Source of the DNA: an uncultured Gemmatimonadaceae bacterium
GTDB taxonomy: Bacteria > Gemmatimonadota > Gemmatimonadetes > Longimicrobiales > Gaopeijiaceae
DNA: 25,453 bases
Direction of reading: 5' to 3'
Assembly: GCA_964350235.1 (NCBI GenBank)
Contig: CAYGKI010000002.1
Span: forward strand, 5,974 to 31,426
Made by a program: the position numbers and the translations under genes
Shown: positions 4,313 to 24,187 of the stretch, one piece after another
Layout of the letters: the number at the start of each line of letters is the position of its first letter
How positions within the stretch are numbered: position 1 is the first letter of the stretch
Notes under the pieces: generated by a model
The model's input: the letters and a program-made list of their open reading frames with translations, nothing else
What the model was told of the DNA's origin: nothing
The model's database searches: none

Positions 4313-4789
4313 TCAGACCGGCGGAAGCTCCACGTGCACGTGCACGGCGGTGGTGACGAAGTCCGCGTGCCCGCTGCCCACGGCACCGTGCATCAGGCTG
4401 AAGACGGCTTCGGTCTCACCTTCCGCCACCCCGTGGAGGTGCCCTCCGAACTCTCCGGGCGTGTCCTGCTCGAACTCGGCGATGTCCTCGTCCGTGATCT
4501 CCACCTGGAGGTACACGTCGTCGTCGAGCGTGATCTCGTCTCCGTCCTCGTCGACGAACCGGACGTCGATGTGCGCCGTCTCCTCGCCCACCTCCACCTC
4601 CAGCTCACCAGTCCAGCCGGTGTCGGCGTCGTACGAGGCGATGGTCACCCCGTTGAGCACCAGCTCGACGCCGTGGGGATCGGCGTGGTCATCCAGGCCT
4701 ACGGGGTCGTTGCCACACGCGCCGAGCGCGACGGAGCCGGCCAGGGCGAGCGCCACGAGGGGGCTGCGGCCGAAAGCTTTCTTGTTCAT
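4313..4789 (-). CDS. His/acid-rich lipoprotein, probable metal-binding partner of the TonB-dependent receptor
   Basis: ATG 4789 preceded by GAGAGGTG; MNKKAFGRSPLVALALAGSVA-LGAC lipobox; 158 aa with 9 His (DDHADPH, GGHLHG, MHG, GHADF, VHVH) and about one quarter Asp/Glu in the mature part. Confidence 0.85.
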   Translation of the reverse strand: MNKKAFGRSPLVALALAGSVALGACGNDPVGLDDHADPHGVELVLNGVTIASYDADTGWTGELEVEVGEETAHIDVRFVDEDGDEITLDDDVYLQVEITDEDIAEFEQDTPGEFGGHLHGVAEGETEAVFSLMHGAVGSGHADFVTTAVHVHVELPPV

Positions 4790-4867: not shown

Positions 4868-7138
4868 TCAGAACACGACGCGGTAGGTCAGACTCAATCC
4901 ACGGCCCGCCTCGGGCATGATGTCCTTCACCCGGGACAGGTGGTTGCGGTACGTACGGTCGGTCAGGTTGTCCCCGCTCAGCGTCAGGGTGTGGAGCCGG
5001 CCCGCCACCGTGAGGCGCACCCCCGCCGAGGCGTCGAGCACCACGTATCCGGGCGTCTCCGTCTCGAACTCGTCCACGCGATCCTGCCGCGCGGCGAGCA
5101 CCGTCTCCACACGGGCGAACCACGCGGGACGCTCGTACTCGGTGCCCAGACGGGCCTGAAGGGGAGGAATCAGGGGCAGCGGCGTGTCGTCACCGTCGCG
5201 CTGGCCCCTGACGTAGGACGCGGTTCCGTGCAGGGTGACGTCGCCGGCCACGGTCCAGTCGAGCCGGCCCTCGAAGCCGGTGAGTACGGCGTCGTCCCCA
5301 CGGAACTGGTAGATAGGGAGGCGAACCTGGCTCGTATCCCCGGTCTCCGCCGGATAGATGTAGCCCGAGATGGCGTTCCGAAAGCCGGTGAGCTCGGCGG
5401 ACACCCGTTCCCGCTCCAATCGGACGAACACGTCCACACCCGTGCCGACTTCATTGTCCAGATCCGGATTGCCCACCTCGAACGCGTATGCCGCCAGGTG
5501 CGGCCCCTCGGAGTACAGCTCGTTCACGTCCGGGGTGCGGAACGCCCGGGACACGCTCACCCCTGTGATGAGACCCGCCGGGAGGCGGTACAACAGGCCC
5601 AGGGACCCCGACGCCGCGTGGAAGGTGCGGTCGCGGATGTCCCCGATCTCCGAGTCCGGATCGTCCTGGAGCGGGTCCGCTCGGGTCCAGTCGTAGCGCA
5701 GCCCCGCTTCCACCAGCAGCGGATCCAGGTCGATCTCCTCGAACACGTAGCCGGCGAGAGACAACCGGCGCGTGTCGGGGGTGGAGAGCCCTCCGGCGAA
5801 GGTGAACTGCTCCAGAGAGGCCCGGGCTCCCACGGCGCCGTTGGTGAACGGCCCCCAACCTTCGTGGCGGGCCACGACATCCCCGCTGCTGGTCTGGAGC
5901 TTGAAGAAGGTGCCGATGATGTCCGGCGGCTCGATCTCCAGGTGACGGTACCATGTGTAGCTGCCGTCGAGATCCAGGGAGCGGAACGGCCCCCACTGAC
6001 CCTCCACCCGGCCATCCACCTTCGTGGCCATCCGCCTCATCTCCACCCGGACCCCGTCCTCGTGCCCACCCACGAAGCCGCCTGGAATGCCGTAGTCGTT
6101 CTCCATGGCCCTGAACGCCACACCCAGATAGCCCTGATCTCCCACCCACGCCGTTCCGGCTCCGACATTCCACGTGTCGACACCGGTGTTCTCCAGGACA
6201 CCCGCCGGCGTGCGCAGGTCGCCGGCCGTGCGCCCACCGGCCTCCAAACGCACGGGAACGCGGTCGGTGAGCGCTGCGCGGACGTGACCGCTGGCGCTCA
6301 CCGCGTCCATGACGCTCTGTCCCTGCAGCGTCACCGATCCCGTGGGGTGGTGCGGGACGTCCGACGGCACCTCGTCCCGAATGACGTTCACCACGCCGCC
6401 GAGCGCGTTGCTCCCGTACAGGATGGCGGCTGGCCCACGCACGACCTCGATTCGCCGAGCGGATCCCGCGTCCAGGGCGGATGCGTGGTCCGAGCTGGAG
6501 CTGGACATGTCACCGCTCCGCACCCCGTCCTCGAGCATGAGGACCCGGTCACCCGAGAGGCCCCGGATGACCGGACGGGCGGTGGCCGGCCCCATGCTGG
6601 TCACTGCCACGCCGGGCTCGGAGGCCAGCGTGGCCGCCACCGTCCCCTGCAGTCGGCGCTGCAGATCCTGGCCGCGCAGCACGTTCACCGGCCGGAGCGC
6701 TTCGGCGGCCGTCCGCTCGCTCAAGGCCCCCGTCACCACCAACCCTCCCACGTCCAGGGGCGACGCCGTCAGCTCGATGACGACCAAGGCTCCGTCCGCC
6801 GAGGTGGAGACCTGGAGCGTCTCGGTCCCGTACCCGAGGCGCTCCACGCGCAGGGTATGCGTTCCGGCTTCCAGTCCGGATAGGTGGAACGAGCCGTCTC
6901 CGTGTGTGGTGGCGGCAGGCCGCGCACCGACAACCGAGACCAGGACGCCGGCCAGTGGAGCGCCCGTCTCCGCGTCCCTCACCACACCTTCGACCTCACC
7001 GGCGTGCTCCGGTACAGCCTGAGCGGACAGACTGGTCGGCTGGACGGCGGCCGCGAGACCGGCCACCGCCGCGAGGACCCGTAGCTTCCTGATCACGAGT
7101 CCGTGTGCGCGGCTAAGATGCATCATCGTTGACGCCAT
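4868..7138 (-). CDS. TonB-dependent receptor, ZnuD-like (Zn/Ni/Co-type metal uptake), with N-terminal carboxypeptidase-regulatory-like domain
   Basis: Signal peptide; VEGVVRDAETGAPLAGVLV domain; TonB-box-like VVVTG; plug RPVIRGLSGDRVLMLEDG...SDHASALD...RIEVVRGPAAILYGSNALGGVVNVI; GPHLAAYAFEVGNPDL; C-terminal NLTDRTYRNHLS...GRGLSLTYRVVF. Start uncertain (7138, 7126/7123 or GTG 7096). Substrate is inferred. Confidence 0.9.
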   Translation of the reverse strand: MASTMMHLSRAHGLVIRKLRVLAAVAGLAAAVQPTSLSAQAVPEHAGEVEGVVRDAETGAPLAGVLVSVVGARPAATTHGDGSFHLSGLEAGTHTLRVERLGYGTETLQVSTSADGALVVIELTASPLDVGGLVVTGALSERTAAEALRPVNVLRGQDLQRRLQGTVAATLASEPGVAVTSMGPATARPVIRGLSGDRVLMLEDGVRSGDMSSSSSDHASALDAGSARRIEVVRGPAAILYGSNALGGVVNVIRDEVPSDVPHHPTGSVTLQGQSVMDAVSASGHVRAALTDRVPVRLEAGGRTAGDLRTPAGVLENTGVDTWNVGAGTAWVGDQGYLGVAFRAMENDYGIPGGFVGGHEDGVRVEMRRMATKVDGRVEGQWGPFRSLDLDGSYTWYRHLEIEPPDIIGTFFKLQTSSGDVVARHEGWGPFTNGAVGARASLEQFTFAGGLSTPDTRRLSLAGYVFEEIDLDPLLVEAGLRYDWTRADPLQDDPDSEIGDIRDRTFHAASGSLGLLYRLPAGLITGVSVSRAFRTPDVNELYSEGPHLAAYAFEVGNPDLDNEVGTGVDVFVRLERERVSAELTGFRNAISGYIYPAETGDTSQVRLPIYQFRGDDAVLTGFEGRLDWTVAGDVTLHGTASYVRGQRDGDDTPLPLIPPLQARLGTEYERPAWFARVETVLAARQDRVDEFETETPGYVVLDASAGVRLTVAGRLHTLTLSGDNLTDRTYRNHLSRVKDIMPEAGRGLSLTYRVVF

Positions 7139-7278
7139 GGATGAGATGGGAGGTCCGGTGCGGACCCGACGCCCACGGCTGGCGCGGCATCGGGGAACAA
7201 CGGCACTCCTCGGCTGCCGAGGAGTGGCCGGACCTGGGGTGCTAGGGAGATCCCGTGGGCGGAATGCCCACGAAGGCG
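7139..7278 (-). promoter_or_regulatory. Structured 140-nt spacer between the RAPP leader ORF and the receptor
   Basis: Perfect 10-bp hairpin 7204-7226; 7-bp hairpin 7254-7272; long-range inverted repeats 7170-7178/7253-7261 and 7151-7158/7228-7235; C-rich 3' end with no Shine-Dalgarno. Confidence 0.5.
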
Positions 7279-7647
7279 CTACGCGGAGGGAGGTGCCCGC
7301 GGGCCGGAGGAGCCCTGGAGAAGGCGATGGGACCGCCTCAGCTCCGGGACCGAGAAAGGCTCGGCGAGATTGCCGAGAGGATGCCCGAGTGCGACGGTGG
7401 CCGGGACCCGGGCCGGCGTGGCGAGCGCGTTGGCGCGCACCAGCTGACAGAACGCATGGTCGTGGTGGGGCGTGCAGTCGTCACTCCCCGGGGACTCGAC
7501 GTGGACCGGAACCCCGTATCGCTCGACGTCGAGAACGCCGTCCGCCGCCGGCAGGGCAACTGCCCCTGCCAACTGCAGAACAGCCAGCACCAGCACGCCC
7601 AAGCGGCGGCCGAAACCGGGGTCCCCATCGTGTTTGCGAGCGTTCAT
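7279..7647 (-). CDS. DUF2946/CruR-like upstream leader protein with C-terminal RAPP ribosome-arrest motif
   Basis: 122 aa: hydrophobic N-terminal segment (RRLGVLVLAVLQLAGAVALPAA), metal-ligand cluster VHVE...DDCTPHHDHAFCQL, Pro/Ala spacer, and ...SSGPRAPPSA-stop (RAPP codons 7299-7288), directly upstream of a TonB-dependent receptor. Confidence 0.8.
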   Translation of the reverse strand: MNARKHDGDPGFGRRLGVLVLAVLQLAGAVALPAADGVLDVERYGVPVHVESPGSDDCTPHHDHAFCQLVRANALATPARVPATVALGHPLGNLAEPFSVPELRRSHRLLQGSSGPRAPPSA

Positions 7648-7720: not shown

Positions 7721-8743
7721 TCACCGAACCTCGAAGACCGTGTTCTGAGCCAGCTCGAGATACGACAACGAGGCGTTGGCCCGACTCACGTTGCAGGAGT
7801 GGTAGCGGATGTCTCCATCCGCTTCCACCGCGTCGTACGGCTGTGAGGAAGAGAATCCCCCCACGACCATCCCGTCGATGTCACCACGGATACGGTCGTC
7901 GATCCAGCCCGCCAGGACGATCCCGTCCCATGAGAAGCTGGGGTTGGCGTCGAACTCTTCGGTGACGATGAGCACGCCGCGCCCGCTCCAGGACGCGTTG
8001 AAGTGCCGGCTTCCGTTGATGCGGAGCACCGGGCACGAACCGGCGGGCAGGGCTCCGAAGTCGGGCCTCACGTCCTCGAAGTCCACCGGGACCGACGGAT
8101 CGGCGAGGAAGTCCCACCGGATCCCGCTCTGCTCGAGGAAGTCCGCGTGCGTCCCGCTCCAGAGGAGGGCGGGCGGGCTTCCCGTCAGGGTTCCGTCGAC
8201 ATCGATGTCGTCCTCGGCCACGGCGCCGGGAATGCTCGGGGCAGTCCCTCCCGGACAGACTGCACCACCGAAGTCGTCCCCGCTGACCGTGCCGTCCACG
8301 TCCAGCTCCTCCACCCGGACCACCAGCGCGGCGTGGAGCGGCAAGGGGCTCCGGCGCTGGTAGGCGTAGGCCCCGACCACGCGGCGGGCGGGGGTATCGG
8401 GGAGGAGCGGATCCACCACGGAGGCCTCGGATCGAATGAAATACACGTGGGTCGAAGCATCGACCACCGAGACGCGCCGCGCCGTCACCAGCGCCTCCCC
8501 ACCGCCGATGGCATACCGACCCGAGTCGGCCACCACGCCGAGCTGCTCCGAGACGAAGCGCTGGAGCCCGCCACGAGCGATGGCCAGGGCTTCTTCCCCC
8601 TGGGTCGCGTAGCGCGCCATCCGCGTCTCGGCGCTCACCATGAGATAGCCGGCCGTGCCCATCACCGAGATGGCGAAAAGCATCAGGACCACGAGAGCGA
8701 GAACGAATCCGCCCTCCCCGGACGTGGGACGAGGCCCTCTCAC
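7721..8743 (-). CDS. pilX: PilX/GspK-like minor pilin with extended C-terminal domain (~340 aa)
   Basis: GTG 8743 overlaps the pilW stop (GTGA); prepilin site G|FVLALVVLMLFAI lacks Glu5, typical of PilX/GspK; ALAIARGGL helix; C-terminal Gly/Asp/Val-rich repeats. Confidence 0.8.
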   Translation of the reverse strand: MRGPRPTSGEGGFVLALVVLMLFAISVMGTAGYLMVSAETRMARYATQGEEALAIARGGLQRFVSEQLGVVADSGRYAIGGGEALVTARRVSVVDASTHVYFIRSEASVVDPLLPDTPARRVVGAYAYQRRSPLPLHAALVVRVEELDVDGTVSGDDFGGAVCPGGTAPSIPGAVAEDDIDVDGTLTGSPPALLWSGTHADFLEQSGIRWDFLADPSVPVDFEDVRPDFGALPAGSCPVLRINGSRHFNASWSGRGVLIVTEEFDANPSFSWDGIVLAGWIDDRIRGDIDGMVVGGFSSSQPYDAVEADGDIRYHSCNVSRANASLSYLELAQNTVFEVR

Positions 8744-9597
8744 GGCACGTTCCTCAACAGGAGGTTCGTGGCGATTCCGAAGGAGATCTCGTCTTCTGGC
8801 CCCGTCCCGGTGGGTCTTCGGACGTTCATGACCAGGCGCACGCCGTCCACGTTCCCCACCGACCCCGCCGTCACCGTGTCCTGGTAGCTCCCACCCCCGG
8901 TTCGATACCGGAACGCGCTCGTGCTGTCCATGCCGGACGCGAACTCCACGGCATCCCCGCCGTAAGGCTGACGGAAGAGCGCCAGGGTGCCCGGCTCCAG
9001 GGCGGACGGACCGATCCGGAACGTGATCTCCCTGAAGAGCATGAGCACCTCGCCCACGTCGGGGACATCCAGCCCGTACAGGAAGAGCAGCCGCCGGATG
9101 GAATGGAACTCGTCCGCCACGCCGAGCGTGTCCGCTCCGTTCCCCGCGCACCGGCCGGCGCTCCCGGAGCTTCCGCCGTTGAGGAAGCCCCAGGTGGCGC
9201 GCTGGTAGTCCCACGCCCCGGACGCTTCGTCCAGGACCGCCACGCCGGCCACCTCGTCGGTGGCCAGCGCCGCGACGCCACCATCCACATGGACATCCAC
9301 ATTGGGGAGGAAGAATCCGGACCGTCCGCACGCGCTCACCACGGCGACGGGGGAACGCACCGTGAGCGTCCTGGCTCCGGCCACCAGGATGCCGTCCCTC
9401 ATGGACGAGCGCAGCTCACGCGCCACGAGATCCGTGGCGGCCCGGACATTGTCGTGCGCCGCAGCGAGCGCGGCCTGGGTGGCCTGGGCCCGATTCTGGG
9501 CGAGGAACGTCGAGCTCACGAGGACGATGACCAGAGAAGACAGCACCAGCGCGATGAGCGCCTCCACGAGCGTGAACCCTCCGCGGGGGCTTCTCAC
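8740..9597 (-). CDS. pilW: PilW/GspJ-like minor pilin (~285 aa)
   Basis: GTG 9597 overlaps the pilV stop (GTGA); G|FTLVEALIALVLSSLV...DLVARELRS. Confidence 0.85.
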   Translation of the reverse strand: MRSPRGGFTLVEALIALVLSSLVIVLVSSTFLAQNRAQATQAALAAAHDNVRAATDLVARELRSSMRDGILVAGARTLTVRSPVAVVSACGRSGFFLPNVDVHVDGGVAALATDEVAGVAVLDEASGAWDYQRATWGFLNGGSSGSAGRCAGNGADTLGVADEFHSIRRLLFLYGLDVPDVGEVLMLFREITFRIGPSALEPGTLALFRQPYGGDAVEFASGMDSTSAFRYRTGGGSYQDTVTAGSVGNVDGVRLVMNVRRPTGTGPEDEISFGIATNLLLRNVP

Positions 9598-9983
9598 CAG
9601 ACCTCCGAGACGTAGGAGGTGACCTGGTAGGAAGGCCCTTCGGACCCTCTGGGCCGTAGCGTGACGTCGACGCGCATGAGCAGCGGAGAGAGACGGGTGA
9701 GCGAGACGGTCCGATCGTAGTCGAGCCCCGAGACCACCACCACATCCACGTCGGAGCCCGCCACCAGCGAAGAGAAGGGCTCGGCCCCCAGGGAATCCAG
9801 CCGTTCCGCCGCCCTCAGCGCCAGGGCGGAGGAGATGCCGGCGTAGCGCATCTGCGTGCTGGTCGCGGTGCTGAGGCGGATCACCATGAGCACGCCCACG
9901 GCGAACACGACGAACGCAGCCACCACTTCGATGAGCGTGAAGCCGCCCCGGCGGACACGGTCCGAGCGAGCGATGCGGATCAC
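9594..9983 (-). CDS. pilV: PilV/GspI-like minor pilin (129 aa)
   Basis: GTG 9983 overlaps the fimT stop; G|FTLIEVVAAFVVFAVGVL...AAERLDSL. Confidence 0.85.
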   Translation of the reverse strand: MIRIARSDRVRRGGFTLIEVVAAFVVFAVGVLMVIRLSTATSTQMRYAGISSALALRAAERLDSLGAEPFSSLVAGSDVDVVVVSGLDYDRTVSLTRLSPLLMRVDVTLRPRGSEGPSYQVTSYVSEVW

Positions 9984-10447
9984 GGTGCCTGGACGCGCGA
10001 CGAGCCGAGGGCGTTGAACGACACCCGGTACTCGGTGGACCCGGCCACGAAGCGAGCCACACCCAGCGTTCCGGAGGCTCCGGAAAGGTCGGCGAACCCC
10101 CGGCGGTCGAAGAGGACCGTATCACCCGCGAGCTCGAGAGCGATCTCCGAGAGCTCCAGCCCGTCCGAGCTGGAGAACCGTCTTTGCACCAGCTCCGTGG
10201 CCCCGTCCAGCGTGGCAACCTCGTACCGGAGGCTACCCTCGAAGAAGCGCAGGACCACGGGTGTCTGGCTCCGTACGGCGAGCTGCCTCGCCTGGGTGAG
10301 GTCCTGGGCGAACACCTGCGCCGCCTGGCGGGCGGCGCTCCTGCTGAAGTACTGCGCCAAAGTGACCGCCGCGAAGCCCATGGTGACCGCGCTCAACGTC
10401 AGCACGGCCAACAGCTCGATGAGCGTGAACCCCCTGGCCCGCGTCAT
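9980..10447 (-). CDS. fimT: FimT/FimU/GspH-like minor pilin (~155 aa)
   Basis: ATG 10447 overlaps the gdh stop (ATGA) with GAGGTG upstream; MTRARG|FTLIELLAVL...AQDLTQARQLAV...VLFDRRGF...VSFNALG. Confidence 0.85.
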   Translation of the reverse strand: MTRARGFTLIELLAVLTLSAVTMGFAAVTLAQYFSRSAARQAAQVFAQDLTQARQLAVRSQTPVVLRFFEGSLRYEVATLDGATELVQRRFSSSDGLELSEIALELAGDTVLFDRRGFADLSGASGTLGVARFVAGSTEYRVSFNALGSSRVQAP

Positions 10448-13400
10448 GCACCTCGATCCGCCAGGGCCGCCAACTCGCGGATCACCACGGACACGGCCGC
10501 GAAGCCCACGGTGCCCTCGGCCTTCAGGTCCGTGATCAGGTTCCGGTACCGTTCGATCTCCCGGGCCCTCATCCTCAGCAAGCGCTCGGTGGCCTGCTCG
10601 ATCCCCTGGTCGTCCTCCGCCCGCCGGAGCACCGAGGCGATGAGCTTCCGGTGGGCCCGGGCAAGGTCCTCGGCGAGGGCCTGGGCGGCCCGCTGCTCCC
10701 AGTGGTCCCCACCCGCCGTGGCGAAGGTCGTCCGTCGGAGCCACGGGACATCGAAGAGATCGGAGATTCGATAGAAGACCTGCGCCGCGGCCACCGGGTC
10801 GGCCTCCGTCTCGCGCGCAATCTCCAGGATCTCCAGGAGCTGGTCGAGGAAGCGCAGCGTGATCAATCGACGGGAGAACAGGTCGTCCGCGCCCACCTTA
10901 CGGATCTCCTGGACCCGGGCTTCGAAGAGCGTCCTGTCCTCGCCCTGGACGAAGGACTCGAAGTGCTCTCTCAGGACCGCCAGTCCGGGTACGCTCCGCT
11001 CCACCACCGTCGCTGGCGACACGTCCGGATCCACGTTCTGGAGGACCCAGCGGGTCGTGCGCTCCAGCACCCTGGCGAGCCCCAGAATCCACCGGTACGC
11101 CACCCTGAGGTTAAGTCGATCGTGCTGCTCGCCGATCTGCGCCATGAGCGCCCGGTGGTCGGCGAGGCGAGACGCCACGAGCCAGGCCCGCGCCACGTCC
11201 TCCACCCGGGAGCCGGTGTCCCGGGCCACCCGGGTCACGAAGGTGGCGCCCATGATGTCCACCAGATCGTTGGTGAGCTGACTGGCGATGATCTCCCGCC
11301 GCAGGCGATGTCCCTCCAGGTGTGATCGGCCGGCGGCGTTGATGGCCGATGACGGGAAGTACCCCAGGAGATAGCTCTCCGTGACCGGGTCGTCCGGGAG
11401 CCCTCCGGCCAGAAGGCGGGTCTTCAGAGCGAGCTTGGCATACGCGAGGAGGACGCAGAGCTCCGGCCTGACCAGCGACTGCCCACGCTCCCTCCGCTCG
11501 CCCAGGACATCCAGCGAGGGAAGTCCTTCCGAAAGCCTGTCCAGCTCCCCCGTCTTCTCCAGGGCGAACATGAACTCGCGGAAATCGTCGAAGCCCTCCT
11601 TGGCCCGCTGCTCGTCCAACGAGACGGCCAGGCTCTGGGAGCGGTTGTCGTCCAACACCAGGTCGGCCACACCCTCGGTGAGGTCCTCCAGGAGCCGGTT
11701 CCGGTCGTCCTGGGACATGGCGCCCCCGACCACGGAAGGCGCGAGGAGGATCTTCAGATTCACCTCATGGTCCGACATGTCGACGCCGGCCGAGTTGTCC
11801 AGGGCGTCGGTGTTGGCACGCCCTCCCCGCAGGGCGTAGGCGATCCTGGCCTTCTGGGTCAATCCCAGGTTTCCACCTTCGCCCAACACGGCGCATCGGA
11901 GCTCGGAGGCGTCCACGCGCACGGCGTCGTTGGAAGGGTCGCCGGCGTCGGCGTGGGTCTCACCATCTTCTTTGACGTACGTGCCGATGCCGCCGTTCCA
12001 CAGCAGCTCGACGGGAGCCTTGAGTACCAGCCGGATGAGCGACTCCCCGTCCATGGTCCCGGGCTCATCCTCTCCCACCCCCAGGGCGGTCCGCGCCTCC
12101 GGCGTCAGCTCCACCTCCTTGGCTCCCCGGGGGACGATCATCCCGCCTTCGCTGAGCAGCGAGCGATCGTAGTCGTCCCAGCTGCTCCGCCCCAGTCCGA
12201 AGAGCCTCCGGCGCTCCGCGAAGGAGGTGGCGGGATCGGGGTCGGGGTCGATGAACACGTGCCGATGATCGAAGGCCGCCACGAGCCGAATCTGCTCGGA
12301 AAGGAGCATGCCGTTGCCGAAGACGTCCCCGCTCATGTCGCCGATCCCGGCCACCGTGAAGGGCTGAGACTGGATGTCCTTGCCCTTCTCCCGGAAATGC
12401 CGCTTCACGCACTCCCAGGCACCCCGGGCGGTGATGCCGACCTCCTTGTGGTCGTATCCGTTGGAGCCGCCCGAAGCGAAGGCGTCGTCCAGCCAGAATC
12501 CGTACTCCGCCGATACCGCGTTGGCCAGGTCGGAGAAGGTGGCGGTGCCCTTGTCCGCCGCCACGACCAGATATGGATCCGGTGGATCCCAGCAGACCAC
12601 CGCTTCGGAGATCCCGGGCCGTCCGTCCGCCAGGTTGTCGGTGATGTCCAGAAGGCCACGGATCAGCGTGCGATACTGGCGGCGTCCCTCCTCCCAGCGC
12701 TCCTCGGCGTCCGCTGGAACCACCCGGGTGATGAACCCGCCCTTGGATCCACCGGGCACGATGACCGCGTTCTTGACCACCTGGGTGCGGACGAGGCCCA
12801 GCACCTCGGTCCGGAAGTCGTCGGGGCGGTCGCTCCACCGGATGCCGCCCCGGGCGACACGGGCGCCGCGAAGATGGATGCCCTCCATGCGGGACGAGTG
12901 CACCCACACCTCGTAGAGCAGGCGTGTGGTCCTCCCGAAGTCCAGGCTCTCGCTGGCGAACTTGAACGAGATGTACGGCACCCCTCCGGATCGCGCCGAA
13001 GGGTCGGCGGCCCCGGTGCGGTAGTAGTTCGTGCGCACCGTCGCAGCGATGAGCTGCTCCAGCCTCCGAAGCGCCCGATCGTCGGAAAGGAGGTCCACCC
13101 CCTTGAGGGAGGCATGGAAGGCGCTCCGGATGTCGGTGGCCGCCCGTTCCCGTTCCTTTGTGGACATCCTGCGGTCGGGGTCGAACCGCGTCTGGAACAG
13201 CTCGAAGAGCTCTCCGGCGATCCCCGGGTGCGAGACCAGCGCCGATGGCAGCGCCAGCCGGCTGGGCACCGCCCTCATCTGGAAGGCGAACCCGGAGTAG
13301 GCGCGGAGCACATCCACTTCGCGCCACCGCAATCCGGCGGTGAGCACCAGTCCGTTGAGGCGGTCGCTCACGGCGTCTCCATCGCGCACGGCGAGGATGG

Positions 13401-20369: not shown

Positions 20370-23102
20370 GGTCCGCACGTACCGCTTCCAGAGCTGACCC
20401 GCCGCCAGCGGAACCAGCGCCGCGCCTGCAGCCACCAACCAATCCGCCGGCGCCAGGGGCACCGTGCCCAGAGCTACCTGGAGCGTGGGAACGTACACCG
20501 CGGCGACCTGCAGGAGCAGCGCGAACACCAGAGCCGCCGACAACCACCGATTGGAGACCCTTTCCGCCCCGGGACCGACAGGACCGAACCGCCGGGCGTT
20601 CAGGGCGTGCGCCAGCTGTGCCAGGGCCAGCGTCATGAAGGCCATGGTGCCGGCGTAACCCGGTGCGGCGCCTTCCCGGGTCAACGCGAGGGCGAACACA
20701 CCCAGCGTGGAAGCCGTCAGCAGGGCGGCGTACCCACCCAGCGTCGCCAGGAATCCCCGGGACAGGATGGGCGCGTCCGTCGGACGCGGCGGGCGCCGCA
20801 TGACGTCGGGCTCGGCCGGCTCGGCGGAGAGCGCCAGAGCCGGGAACACGTCCGTGACCACGTTCAACCAGAGCAGCTGTAGAGGAAGGAGCGGGAGGGG
20901 GGCTCCGACGAGGGACGCACCGAGCACTACCCCCACCTCCGACAGGTTACAGCTGAACAGGTAGAAGACGAACTTCCGGATGTTGTCGAAGATGACCCGA
21001 CCCTCCTCCACGGCCACACCCACCGTCTCGAGTCGGTCGTCGGCCAGGACGAGGTCCGCCACGCCCTTGGCCACGTCGGTTCCCCGCCCCCCCATGGCCA
21101 CCCCGATGTCCGCGCGCTTGAGGGCCGGAGCATCGTTGACACCGTCACCCAGCATGCCCACGACCTCACCTCGCTCTCGGAGCGCCTCGACGAGCCTCAA
21201 CTTGTCGTGCGGGCTGACCCGACCGAAAACGCTGGCCTCGGCAACCAGCGCGACCAGCTCGTCGTGCCCCATCCGTGACAGCTCCGCACCCTTCACCACC
21301 CGCCCCCCTTCCGGGAGCATGTCCAGGCGCCGGGCGATGGACCGGGCAGTGGCGGGCTGATCCCCCGTGATCATCAGGGTCCGCACCCCCGCGGATCGAA
21401 AGCGGGCGATGGTTTCCGCCACATGGGGAGCGGGAGGATCCATGAGTCCGATGAACCCGAGCAGGGTCAACCCCTCCAGCCCCTCGTCACGACCCGCTCG
21501 GGCCCTCGGCGCGTGACCCGAGGCCACCGCCAGCACGCGGAGGCCCTCCGCCGCGAGGCGCTCCTCGAGCTCGAATACTTCCCGGCGCGCAGACTCGTCC
21601 ATCGGCTCACGGCCCTCCGGGCCCATACGGTCGACGCACAGAGGCATCACCCTGTCCGTGGCGCCTTTCACGAGGACCTCCACGGTATCCGGTTCGGGCC
21701 CCGCCCCGCCGTGGAAACTGGCCATCAGCATCCGCTCGCTGGAGAAGGGCATGCGCGCGACTTCCGGCGCCTGGTCGAGGAGCGCCGCGCGCTCCATTCC
21801 CATGGCGTCTCCCAGACGGAGGATGGCCACATCGGTGGGATCGCCGATGCCCCGCTGGACCCCATCCACCGACTCCAGGCGGGCTTCGTTGGCGAGCACG
21901 GCGGCGCGCACCAGCTCGTCCAGCCCCGCCACCTCCACCAGCTCCCCGGCGCGACCCTCCGGGCGCCCCCGAGCCCCTCCCTCCTCGGGAGAGAGGTCCA
22001 CCCGTCCCCCGGCCGCGAGCACCGAAGTGACGGTCATCTTGCCCGTGGTCAGGGTCCCGGTCTTGTCGGCGCAGATCACCGTGGCGGACCCCAGGGCCTC
22101 CACGGCCGGCGGCCGCCTCACCAGGGCGTTGCGCCGTGCCATCCGCCACATCCCCACCGCCAGGGTGATGGTGGCGACCACCGGGAGTCCCTCCGGGACC
22201 GCTGCGATGGCCAGGGCGAGCCCCGTCTGAACCACCAGCCAGGGGTCCCTTCCTCCCACCAGCCCCACCAGGATGACCAGCGCGGCGACACCGAGCGTCA
22301 GCCACACCAGCCGCTTGCCCAATACGTCCAGACGCTGCTCGATGGGTGTGGGCGCGTGCTCGAGGGTGCTGACCAGGACCCCGATCTTCCCCAGCTCCGT
22401 GCTGGCCCCGGTGGCCACGACCACTGCCTCGCCCGCCCCCCTCGCCACGGTCGTGCCCTTGAACACCATGGACGTCCTGTCCCCCACGCCCGTCGGTCCG
22501 GCTGCCTCCTCCACCACCGGGTCGGTGCTCTTGCCCACCGGCTCCGACTCCCCGGTGAGCGCCGCCTCTTCCATCCTGAGCTCGTCCGCCCGCAGAAGCC
22601 GCGCGTCGGCGGGGACGGCGGCGCCTTCGGAAAGGACGATCACGTCGCCGGGCACCAGCTCGGAAGCCGCCACCTTCAGGCGATGGCCGTCCCTGAGCAC
22701 CACCGCCTCGTCGACCTGGAGCTGCCGGAGGGCATCCACGGCCATGCGCGCCCGCCACTCGGTCCAGAACCCCACCGCGACGTTGATGGCCAGCACGACG
22801 CCGATGGCGGCCGCTTCGACGTGGTCGCCGATGAGCGCGGAGAGCGCGGTGGCGGCCACCAACAGCCAGACCACCACGCTCCGGAACTGGTGGCTGAACA
22901 CGGCCCACGCCGATACGGGCCTGCGAACCGCCAGGACGTTGGCTCCGTAGCGGGCGAGGCGCTCGGTCGCCTCCTCCGCCGTCAGGCCCTCCCTGTCCGC
23001 TCCCTGCCGCCGGAGAACTTCGTCCGCAGAGAGCGCATGCCAGGCGTCAGCCTGCGCGTCCTCGGTGATGTTACCTGACCGCGGGTGGTCGCCGGGCCTC
23101 AC
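20346..23102 (-). CDS. Cation-translocating P-type ATPase, P2A (Ca2+-type; CtpF/SERCA-like)
   Basis: [10 protein letters not shown]-terminus, [45 protein letters not shown]5 SCNLSEV, M6 [20 protein letters not shown] start overlaps the upstream stop. Confidence 0.95.
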
Positions 23103-24187
23103 CCCGTGTAGCGCAACCTGGCCCCCACCCCTTCCGCTTCCTCGTCGAGCCGCTCCGCGCTGTCATGGGAGAGCTCCTCCACCCCGGCGCCCTGCTCGAA
23201 GGCCGTCCCGACGAAGTGGTCGGCCAGGTCGGGGTGGCGCTCGCGAAAGCCTCGGGTGAGGAGCAGGGTGTCCACCCGCGCCCCGCGGAGCGCATCTTCG
23301 GTGTCCACCAGCCCCAGCGCGCCCTTGCCGCCCGATCGCGCCAGGTCCATGACGGTTCCGAGGAGCTCGCCCTGGAGGGCACGAGTCAGCTCGGATGCCG
23401 CCCCCTCCACCGTCTCCTTCACCTCCGCTTCGGTCATGGCGAGATGCATGGAGGGAACGACGACGAGCCGGTCGGACATATGCTCCAACTGGCCCGCCAC
23501 TGCGGCCTCCCGCTCCGCGACCCCCCCCAACACCACGAGCCCGTCCTTGCCCGCCAGGTCCTCCACGACCTGGACGAGGCGAGCCTGCAGCTCGGTGGCG
23601 CTCTTCTCCAATGCGCGCTGGGCGGCGTCCGTGCCCGTCTCACCGTGCGTGCCGGTGTGCGTGGACGCCCGCTTGCTCATGCTGGACTCCCGGTAGTCGC
23701 CGATCTCCGCGTCGGCGAGGAGATCCGCGCGCTCCTCCAGCTCACCCTGATGGTAGGTGAAGACCCTGGCCTTCCGGCTGTCCACCAGGACCGCCACCAC
23801 CATCCGATCCTGCTTGAGGGCGCGCACGTACGGTGCAGCGCGGAGCCCGCGCTCCCAGCGGACCAGGTGTGGCATGGGCACGGGGAGCTCCTCGGCGTAG
23901 ACGAGCCCTCCCTCCGCCGCAAAGCCGACCCACCCCTTCGCCGGCAGGAAGGCTCCGTAGCGGCCAAGGCGCTCCTCCACCAACGCCTTCGCCCGGTCGA
24001 ACGCATCCAACGTCTCCGGGCTCTCGGACTCGACACGGGCTCGCTCCCGCGCCAGCCCCTGCTCCAACTCCAGCGCCCAGGTCCGGCGCTGTGCGGGGTC
24101 CTTGCCGTCCCCGTCGACGTAGACGCTCAAGACGCTCTCGTCGCGGTGGCTTCGGTAGAGCTCGATCAACTGGTCTCGGTTCAGCAT
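23099..24187 (-). CDS. Bacterial aeRF1/pelota-like protein (baeRF family, probably baeRF10-type) lacking GGQ; Balon-like candidate
   Basis: N-terminal VLSVYVD; middle RNaseH-like domain VAVLVDSRKARVF...LVVLGG; L7Ae-like C-terminal domain ARVDTLLL...GVGARLRY (eRF1 GIGAILRY-like); loop at the GGQ position reads GTHGETG. Strong SD GGAGGGAG upstream. Confidence 0.75.
   Translation of the reverse strand: MLNRDQLIELYRSHRDESVLSVYVDGDGKDPAQRRTWALELEQGLARERARVESESPETLDAFDRAKALVEERLGRYGAFLPAKGWVGFAAEGGLVYAEELPVPMPHLVRWERGLRAAPYVRALKQDRMVVAVLVDSRKARVFTYHQGELEERADLLADAEIGDYRESSMSKRASTHTGTHGETGTDAAQRALEKSATELQARLVQVVEDLAGKDGLVVLGGVAEREAAVAGQLEHMSDRLVVVPSMHLAMTEAEVKETVEGAASELTRALQGELLGTVMDLARSGGKGALGLVDTEDALRGARVDTLLLTRGFRERHPDLADHFVGTAFEQGAGVEELSHDSAERLDEEAEGVGARLRYTG

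Follow-up and report, generated by a model that had tools for sequence, protein, structure and literature searches.

A RAPP leader peptide with a conserved Cys/His core precedes a ZnuD-like TonB-dependent receptor gene in Gemmatimonadota and is a candidate metal-sensing, possibly zinc-sensing, regulator

We analysed a stretch of 25,453 nucleotides (the window) from an uncultured Gemmatimonadaceae bacterium (GTDB family Gaopeijiaceae; contig CAYGKI010000002.1, positions 5,974 to 31,426). We focused on a 122-codon open reading frame (ORF) on its reverse strand, which ends with the motif RAPP shortly before the stop codon and lies directly upstream of a gene for a TonB-dependent receptor. Our reading, to which we give a probability of about 0.6, is that this ORF is a translated regulatory leader of the CruR/CutF kind, that zinc is the metal it most likely senses, and that relief of a ribosome stall controls the genes for the receptor and for a lipoprotein encoded next to it. 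The stall, the binding of a metal, the identity of this metal, the direction of the control and a Rho-dependent step are all features that we infer from sequence.

The leader is a conserved gene

The elements of the leader and the genes that follow it are listed here with their positions in the window.

7279..7647 (-): leader ORF, 122 amino acids, ATG at 7647 and TAG at 7281-7279; supported by a coding-type GC content at the codon positions and by homologues
7602-7552 (-): hydrophobic segment L16-L32, preceded by R14-R15; signal peptide or N-in signal anchor, from inspection of the sequence
7492..7503 (-): H49-V-E51-S52 motif, in which HVE is residues 49-51 (7503-7495); H-x-E is common to DUF2946-like leaders
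7482-7438 (-): DDCTPHHDHAFCQLV, residues D56 to V70, the Cys/His cluster
7435..7476 (-): sensor core C58-x3-H62-D-H64-x2-C67-Q-L-V70-R71, a putative Cys2His2-type metal site
7315..7434 (-): linker, residues 72-111, of fixed length and variable sequence
7288..7299 (-): R117-A-P-P120, predicted ribosome arrest motif
7279..7287 (-): S121-A122-TAG, the stop being exactly two codons past RAPP
7139..7278 (-): spacer between leader and receptor gene, 140 nucleotides, C-rich and structured, with hairpins at 7271-7255 (stop-proximal) and 7226-7204 (10 bp)
4868..7138 (-): TonB-dependent receptor (CarboxypepD_reg, Plug and barrel; Pfam), the regulated gene in our proposal
4313..4789 (-): lipoprotein, acidic and rich in His, encoded by the third gene of the module; it has a lipobox and His residues that are invariant in 41 homologues

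The GC content of the leader at codon positions 1, 2 and 3 (0.80/0.52/0.81) resembled that of the adjacent receptor gene (0.72/0.51/0.86) and of the glutamate dehydrogenase gene, and the overlapping frames differed from this pattern. A word-indexed search identified 28 close homologues, mostly of exactly 122 amino acids, of which the named ones were labelled Gemmatimonadota. Invariant in their alignment were H49, E51, S52, C58, H62, D63, H64, C67, Q68, R71, G112 and P116-R-A-P-P120, and R15, L19, A22, L32 and P33 were conserved. The HVES motif, invariant in these close homologues, was still at least 90% conserved in an alignment of 149 sequences. When 1.8 billion representatives were searched exhaustively with a profile, 260 leader matches were obtained at E<=1e-3 (88 at E<=1e-10), nearly all of them 95-150 amino acids long and aligned through the last residue. 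Where sources gave the homologues a name, this was only 'hypothetical protein'.

The ORF could in principle be a chance, untranslated reading frame, as the region has a GC content of 70% and contains overlapping ORFs of 60-236 amino acids in other frames, and as the leader had no match in Pfam or NCBIfam scans. This explanation is refuted by the conservation of the leader, and we consider its probability negligible: the GC content by codon position follows a coding pattern, 260 homologous clusters share invariant residues, the conserved residues show turnover of synonymous codons, and the length of 122 amino acids is kept across homologues. These data confirmed that the leader is a real gene, selected at the amino-acid level.

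The initial annotation of this DNA, made from the letters alone, had described the ORF as a RAPP leader with a Cys/His cluster and a hydrophobic N-terminus. The ORF is indeed such a leader, of the CruR type, and a gene for a TonB-dependent receptor follows it. The coordinates given in the annotation were all correct (RAPP at 7299-7288), and the cluster and the N-terminal segment proved to be conserved. RAPP and the His/Cys cluster, the joint loss of which in homologues it had named as a finding that would speak against its proposal, are both conserved.

The arrest motif has a fixed position relative to the stop and to the Cys/His core

Among 167 short profile matches with a RAPP-like motif, this motif was RAPP in 148 and RGPP in 18; RGPP was the only motif with which RAPP interchanged among leader homologues. 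RAPP and RGPP are the motifs reported as the strongest arresters, and a toeprint of CruR has been published (PMC12992588). As stated in the initial annotation for the leader itself, the motif is found two residues from the C-terminus, and this was the case in 151 of the 167 homologues (about 90%). At the DNA level, the stop codon came exactly two codons after RAPP in 41 of 44 distinct loci. Across these 44 loci, five synonymous codons were used for the Arg and four each for the Ala and for both Pro, indicating that the constraint bears on the peptide and not on the RNA. By analogy with CruR, we predict that P119 occupies the P site and P120 the A site at the arrest.

The linker was gapless in the alignment of 28 sequences, and its residues 78-110 varied freely. 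The distance from C67 to R117 was 49 residues in the clade of the leader (46 when counted from V70) and constant within this clade. In a second clade the Cys-to-RAPP distance was 46, and nearly all representatives fell within 45-50; the corresponding values are 43-46 for the DUF2946-like leaders found in the phylum and 45 for CruR. In the latter, regulation is impaired when the length between sensor and RAPP is altered by five residues (PMC9426467). The exactness of the linker length makes a hypothesis based on force or geometry directly testable.

The second Cys of CxxC is an optional part of the sensor core

The sensor region was compared over 164 representatives, with positions numbered relative to C67 (position 0). 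The consensus core reads C(-9) x3 H(-5) x H/D/E(-3) x2 C(0) Q x [C or V/L/A/T/I] R. Cys was found at -9 in 153/164, His at -5 in 162/164, His, Asp or Glu at -3 in 155/164, Gln at +1 in 148/164 and Arg at +4 in 153/164. Position +3 was Cys in 71 of the 164 and V, L, A, T or I (plus one each of M, F and G) in the other 93. The window leader has C67-Q-L-V70 and does not contain the invariant CxxC of the CruR type; it reads HDHAFCQLVR where relatives read HDHLFCQLCR, and the hhalign alignment pairs C67 with the first of the two Cys in the DUF2946-like CxxC. The initial annotation had rightly placed a Val at the position of the second CxxC Cys. Its view that a His cluster replaces CxxC did not hold, since C58, H62 and H64 were equally conserved in the relatives with a full CxxC. 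From the alignment, the conserved core appears to be C-x3-H-x-H-x2-C, with the second Cys of CxxC as an optional extra.

The Cys or non-Cys state changed only five times on a tree of 149 sequences, which makes the Val type a coherent lineage. A His at position -6 (H61 in the window leader) was present in 39% of the non-Cys types versus 13% of the Cys types. H61 was considered as a stand-in ligand for the lost Cys and rejected, this being an enrichment and not a rule. About half of the family has thus lost one CxxC Cys and kept C-x3-H-x-H-x2-C, which offers a natural comparison and marks the residues to be mutated.

An AlphaFold2 (AF2) model of the leader, computed with the alignment of 149 sequences, contained a helix at residues 10-44 (predicted local distance difference test score, pLDDT, about 96) and a short helix at residues 64-76 carrying C67 and V70. 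Confidence was low elsewhere, including the linker, and the model had no metal-site geometry and no fold beyond the two helices. For CruR, too, little structure is reported to be predicted (PMC9426467).

The leader family appears to be a sister of DUF2946

The initial annotation had proposed DUF2946 (PF11162) as the family to search. This profile gave no match to the window leader at E<=1 (gathering cut-off 23.7 bits) and none in the whole genome, which is 75% complete. Relatives of the CxxC type scored 12-20 bits, below the cut-off, and relatives of the Val type did not score. Of 301 genomes searched across the phylum, 22 had PF11162 matches (9 above the cut-off) and 52 were matched by a new profile made from the leader family, some of them by both. 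The matches of the new profile were found in 34 of 47 genomes of the family to which the window belongs, in 10 of 23 of a second family and in 7 of 125 of a third.

Remote homology was detected by profile-profile comparison. With hhalign, the leader family matched the PF11162-matched leaders of Gemmatimonadota with a probability of 97.8% (E 7e-13, 116 columns), and the HVE of the leader was placed on the H-x-E of the DUF2946-like leaders. The sensor region alone, after removal of the membrane segment and RAPP, still gave 93.6% (E 2e-7), compared with 0.3% for a reversed control. Because PF11162 misses the leaders while profile-profile homology and the spacing agree, we read the leader family as a probable sister family of DUF2946 that escapes the Pfam model. 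The new profile could serve to annotate genes of roughly 120 codons that have no match in Pfam or NCBIfam.

Canonical DUF2946-type leaders with CxxC and RAPP were also observed elsewhere in Gemmatimonadota (loci L007, L009, L015; L008, L010, L013). They were followed by genes for an ABC-2-type ATPase and a permease, or for a TolC-like outer-membrane efflux protein, the latter being judged by eye from N-terminal sequence only. The variety of these genes suggests that Gemmatimonadota use this type of leader for several kinds of metal operon.

The leader forms a module with a ZnuD-like receptor and a His-rich lipoprotein

The triad of leader, receptor and lipoprotein was found in 44 of 45 loci, belonging to three families. 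Gene order beyond the triad, with glutamate dehydrogenase and pseudopilin genes upstream and an arginine decarboxylase gene downstream, was kept in near relatives only. The best NCBIfam match of the receptor was ZnuD (1.2e-63), at 215.9 bits and thus below the cut-off of 950 bits, and its best match in the PDB was also ZnuD (4rdr, 1.5e-34, versus 1e-15 for OprC). TonB-copper models matched the receptor as well. His, Asp and Glu abound in the lipoprotein and Met is scarce; the protein has no Cys besides that of the lipobox and often ends in a HVHVHEH tail. Its AF2 model was an Ig-like sandwich (pLDDT 87.8). The fold matched DUF4625-type lipoproteins, with one neighbour annotated as NosL, and a Foldseek search against the PDB gave generic Ig-like matches only. 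DUF4625-type lipoproteins have been proposed to act as lids of TonB transporters (bioRxiv 10.1101/2023.03.17.533168), and the modelled fold suggests that the lipoprotein is probably a lid for the receptor or a partner in metal capture. Met-rich motifs and PCuAC, YcnI, CopC and PepSY genes were searched for in the module and not found.

The receptors of the window and of loci L058-L093 share a motif, A-Q-V-E-H-E-G-E-I-E-G, after the predicted signal peptide; in the window it reads VPEHAGEVEG, at the start of the CarboxypepD_reg domain. One genome carries two complete leader-receptor-lipoprotein modules in tandem (L075, G133:C1:2233335-2243643).

A second RAPP leader heads a ZnuA-type operon

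On one metagenome contig (L056), the leader-receptor-lipoprotein module directly follows a second operon, in which a RAPP leader (618-980) is followed by genes for a porin-like protein of 448 amino acids that is rich in His and Glu, for a binding protein of the ZnuA family and for an ABC-3 permease. The second leader has the arrangement ...ESEH-GAC-x5-HDH-x2-C...RAPP-x2-stop. The genome from which the window is taken also encodes such a leader, outside the window, on contig C131 at about 6588-6930 (+); it reads ...CPPAHDHTFCTQV...SRAPPRPT* and is interrupted by a run of N. On C131 the order is second leader, porin, start of ZnuA, and ZnuA and ZnuB are found on contig C125. The porin-like protein had no Pfam match; its homologue was found in 22 of the family's 49 genera. 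In most loci with enough upstream sequence the porin gene was preceded by a RAPP-type leader, and ZnuA was downstream in most of these. The family of the second leader matched that of the window leader (hhalign 97%, E 1e-10), and its Cys-to-RAPP spacing was 45 in 14 of 16 members.

The ZnuA-like protein was most similar to AztC, a zinc protein (NCBIfam 1e-21, below the cut-off), with MntC, a manganese-type protein, as the next match. Its top PDB matches were unnamed periplasmic solute-binding proteins, which we take to be Paracoccus AztC. Manganese-type binding proteins have a Glu as third ligand; at this position the ZnuA-like protein keeps a His in the alignment to its top PDB match.

Zinc is the most probable metal

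The ZnuD-like receptor and the presence of a paralogous leader on the porin/AztC-like ZnuA operon point to zinc, which we hold to be the metal with a somewhat better than even chance. The receptor and the ABC importer, each under one of two sister sensors, look like a zinc-uptake regulon, as judged from gene content.

The same architecture and mechanism might instead serve copper, with a receptor that imports copper or a copper chelate. The Val would then be neutral, and C58, H62, H64 and C67 would suffice for Cu(I), which is well bound by Cys/His sites. The window receptor is matched by OprC and by TonB-copper models, the NosL annotation of one fold neighbour of the lipoprotein goes in the same direction, and leaders of the CxxC and Val types stand before the same receptor subfamily. 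Furthermore, CruR, the sole characterised relative linked to a receptor, is responsive to copper (PMC9426467). On the other side, the similarity of the receptor to ZnuD is far more significant than that to OprC, the paralogous leader heads an importer operon of the ZnuA/AztC type and no copper system, the module lacks all of the copper-associated motifs and genes that were searched for, and the lipoprotein contains much His, Asp and Glu but little Met and Cys. On balance, copper seems to us unlikely, by a good distance the less probable of the two metals.

The initial annotation had proposed that the leader is a His-rich variant tuned to a different metal. A metal other than copper is plausible for the family as a whole, on the basis of its gene context, but the Val does not indicate it, as the receptor subfamily is unchanged. 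Thus, CxxC-type leaders precede receptors that are 54-67% identical to the window receptor, and in one genome a CxxC-type leader heads the porin-ZnuA operon. Likewise, the suggested correlation of ligand pattern with receptor subfamily was not observed: there was no separation, the receptors of Cys- and Val-type leaders being 54-79% identical to each other. As both types of leader stand before the same receptor subfamily, we see no sign that the change from Cys to Val retunes the metal.

The spacer suggests a Rho-dependent output step

The fragment 7120-7300 (181 nucleotides), which includes the spacer, folded better than shuffled sequences (z = -2.88). In the spacer RNA the C/G ratio was 1.5, as it was over the final 150 nucleotides of the leader; this skew is attained by 7.4% of windows across the genome on either strand. 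Homologous spacers were 63-194 nucleotides long (median 159, versus 162 between cruR and bfrG), with C exceeding G in 37 of 37. In most loci a hairpin started 3-9 nucleotides past the leader stop and was followed by a C-rich tract, the hairpin sequences being clade-specific. Scans for intrinsic terminators and sigma-70 promoters found none.

We also considered that a stalled ribosome unmasks the receptor start and rejected this candidate, because no pairing of RAPP or stop with the start was found. Over 37 loci, pairing of the stop-proximal spacer with the receptor start had a mean z of -0.10, with 2 of 37 below -1.64, and pairing of the RAPP codons or stop with the ribosome-binding region of the receptor had a mean z of -0.12 (+1.25 in the window). 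The receptor start has no Shine-Dalgarno-like sequence. Judging from composition only, a CruR-like, Rho-dependent design would fit better than an unmasking of the SecM or CutF type. As to geometry, a ribosome stalled at P119 would spare the stop-proximal hairpin, and a ribosome that has reached the stop would come to its 5' arm; this difference would follow from the constant gap of two codons between RAPP and stop.

Proposed mechanism and its alternatives

In the mechanism that we propose, the N-terminal hydrophobic helix would target or anchor the nascent chain, and the ribosome would stall at R117-A-P-P120 with P119 in the P site. At this point the cluster formed by C58, H62, H64 and C67 (plus H49 and E51) would lie 50-70 residues from the peptidyl-transferase centre, just past the exit tunnel. 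When metal is scarce, the stall would persist and the receptor and lipoprotein genes would be expressed. Binding of metal to the nascent cluster would cause local folding that pulls on the chain, release the stall and allow termination two codons further on, after which the C-rich structured spacer of 140 nucleotides would stop downstream expression, most likely through Rho-dependent termination as in CruR. Relief of arrest by a force arising from metal-dependent folding, which the initial annotation had already put forward, is an inference.

A more specific version appears possible, though we give it somewhat less than an even chance. It supposes a zinc-sensing arrest in which a nascent Cys2His2 'knuckle', C-x3-H-x-H-x2-C, folds on Zn(II) past the tunnel or at the translocon and frees the RAPP stall, the two sister leaders co-regulating the receptor-lid pair and the porin, ZnuA and permease genes. 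If it is true, the classical Zur regulon would be controlled wholly or partly by nascent peptides in Gemmatimonadota.

A different function can be envisaged, in which the product functions chiefly as a metal-binding protein that is exported or anchored in the membrane (such as a periplasmic chaperone or partner of the receptor) or as a secretion monitor, RAPP merely slowing translation for targeting. The N-terminal helix is indeed conserved and modelled with confidence, DUF2946 proteins mostly have export signals (PMC9973294), and the RAPP-containing ApdA and ApdP are secretion monitors (PMC10987492). However, residues 72-111 are free in sequence and exact in length, which suits a spacer in the ribosome tunnel and not a folded protein, and AF2 predicted two helices and nothing more. 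The stop lies exactly two codons past RAPP, the gene is always directly upstream of the receptor with a spacer of conserved length, and the downstream genes encode the receptor and lipoprotein, not Sec or YidC components. We therefore consider this function improbable.

Several observations weigh against the reading of the leader as a zinc-responsive arrest peptide. Cu(I), Ni and Co are bound by Cys/His sites as well, and copper is the metal to which the only characterised relative linked to a receptor responds. The window leader has an incomplete canonical CxxC and is recognised neither by Pfam, including its DUF2946 model, nor by NCBIfam. None of the NCBIfam cut-offs is approached by the ZnuA-like protein, whose manganese-type match follows closely on its best one, and ZnuA/ZnuB lie within 4-6 kb of a window-type leader in only 1 of 45 loci (L056), so that the link to zinc rests mainly on the paralogous leader. 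No pairing was found that would let a stalled ribosome unmask the receptor start, the Rho step is deduced from base composition alone, and the genome holds two Fur-family regulators, which could be the main control. Finally, in CutF binding of the metal induces the stall rather than relieving it (bioRxiv 10.1101/2025.02.05.636593; PMC9973294), and the sign of the response could therefore differ here.

Comparison with known arrest peptides

To our knowledge, metal-sensing arrest peptides are known from two copper cases only, CruR and CutF. CruR (Bp2923) of Bordetella pertussis, the prototype of DUF2946/PF11162, is likewise encoded by a small upstream ORF with an N-terminal hydrophobic segment of the export type (PMC9426467). 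Both peptides have a Cys metal motif about 45-49 residues from a C-terminal RAPP, itself 2-3 residues before the stop, and in both cases a long GC-rich spacer (140 nucleotides here versus 162 between cruR and bfrG) leads to a TonB-dependent receptor. They differ in that the window leader has no PF11162 match, a Val in place of the second CxxC Cys, and a core consisting of C-x3-H-x-H-x2-C plus H-V-E-S. Moreover, the third gene encodes a His-rich lipoprotein here and a PepSY-type membrane protein in the CruR operon. The window leader also belongs to another phylum, Gemmatimonadota, where the ZnuD-like receptor and the sister leader at the ZnuA-type operon make zinc likelier than copper.

CutF of Rhodobacter capsulatus resembles the window leader as we read it: CutF is related to DUF2946, senses its metal as a nascent chain, and combines a signal sequence and a Cys/His motif with a proline stall near the C-terminus. 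In contrast to the window leader, it has CxxxC and PPP, depends on elongation factor P (EF-P), and undergoes a copper-induced stall that unmasks the Shine-Dalgarno sequence of a detoxifying oxidase; the window leader has RAPP and import genes downstream, and no masking helix was detected in our pairing tests. The 29 'CutF-like' clusters that have been described show varied Cys/His patterns and probable non-copper metals, with Ni/Co for those associated with HupE/UreJ (PMC9973294).

The upstream ORFs with RAPP or RGPP of the 'TonB-related' class share with the window leader the C-terminal motif, a (here putative) localisation signal and a downstream receptor (EMBO J 2025, PMC12992588). This class was described as widespread in Gram-negative bacteria (PMC12992588). 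The survey relied on motif and annotation only and did not define the sensor core, the fixed spacing or the ZnuA operon of the present family. With ApdA, ApdP and SecM, the leader is expected to share the chemistry of RAPP arrest (RAGP in SecM) at the peptidyl-transferase centre (PMC10987492). Those peptides, however, monitor Sec or YidC, precede genes for localisation machinery and have no conserved Cys/His sensor. Text searches of a paper library yielded no publication linking such leaders to zinc uptake of the ZnuD/ZnuA type. Confirmation of the probable pair of zinc-linked operons would add zinc uptake to the copper cases of nascent-chain sensing, in a poorly studied phylum.

Neighbouring genes

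Four pseudopilin-like genes (GspH, N_methyl and PilX_N signals; window 7721-10744 (-)) lie between the gene for NAD-glutamate dehydrogenase and the leader. They end 73 nucleotides upstream of the leader start, and the gap contains no visible sigma-70-type promoter, so co-transcription of the pseudopilin-like genes with the leader is possible. Farther away, at 23099-24187 (-), a gene with a baeRF_family10 domain (7.8e-11; bacterial archaeo-eukaryotic release factor family 10) adjoins a gene for a P-type cation ATPase.

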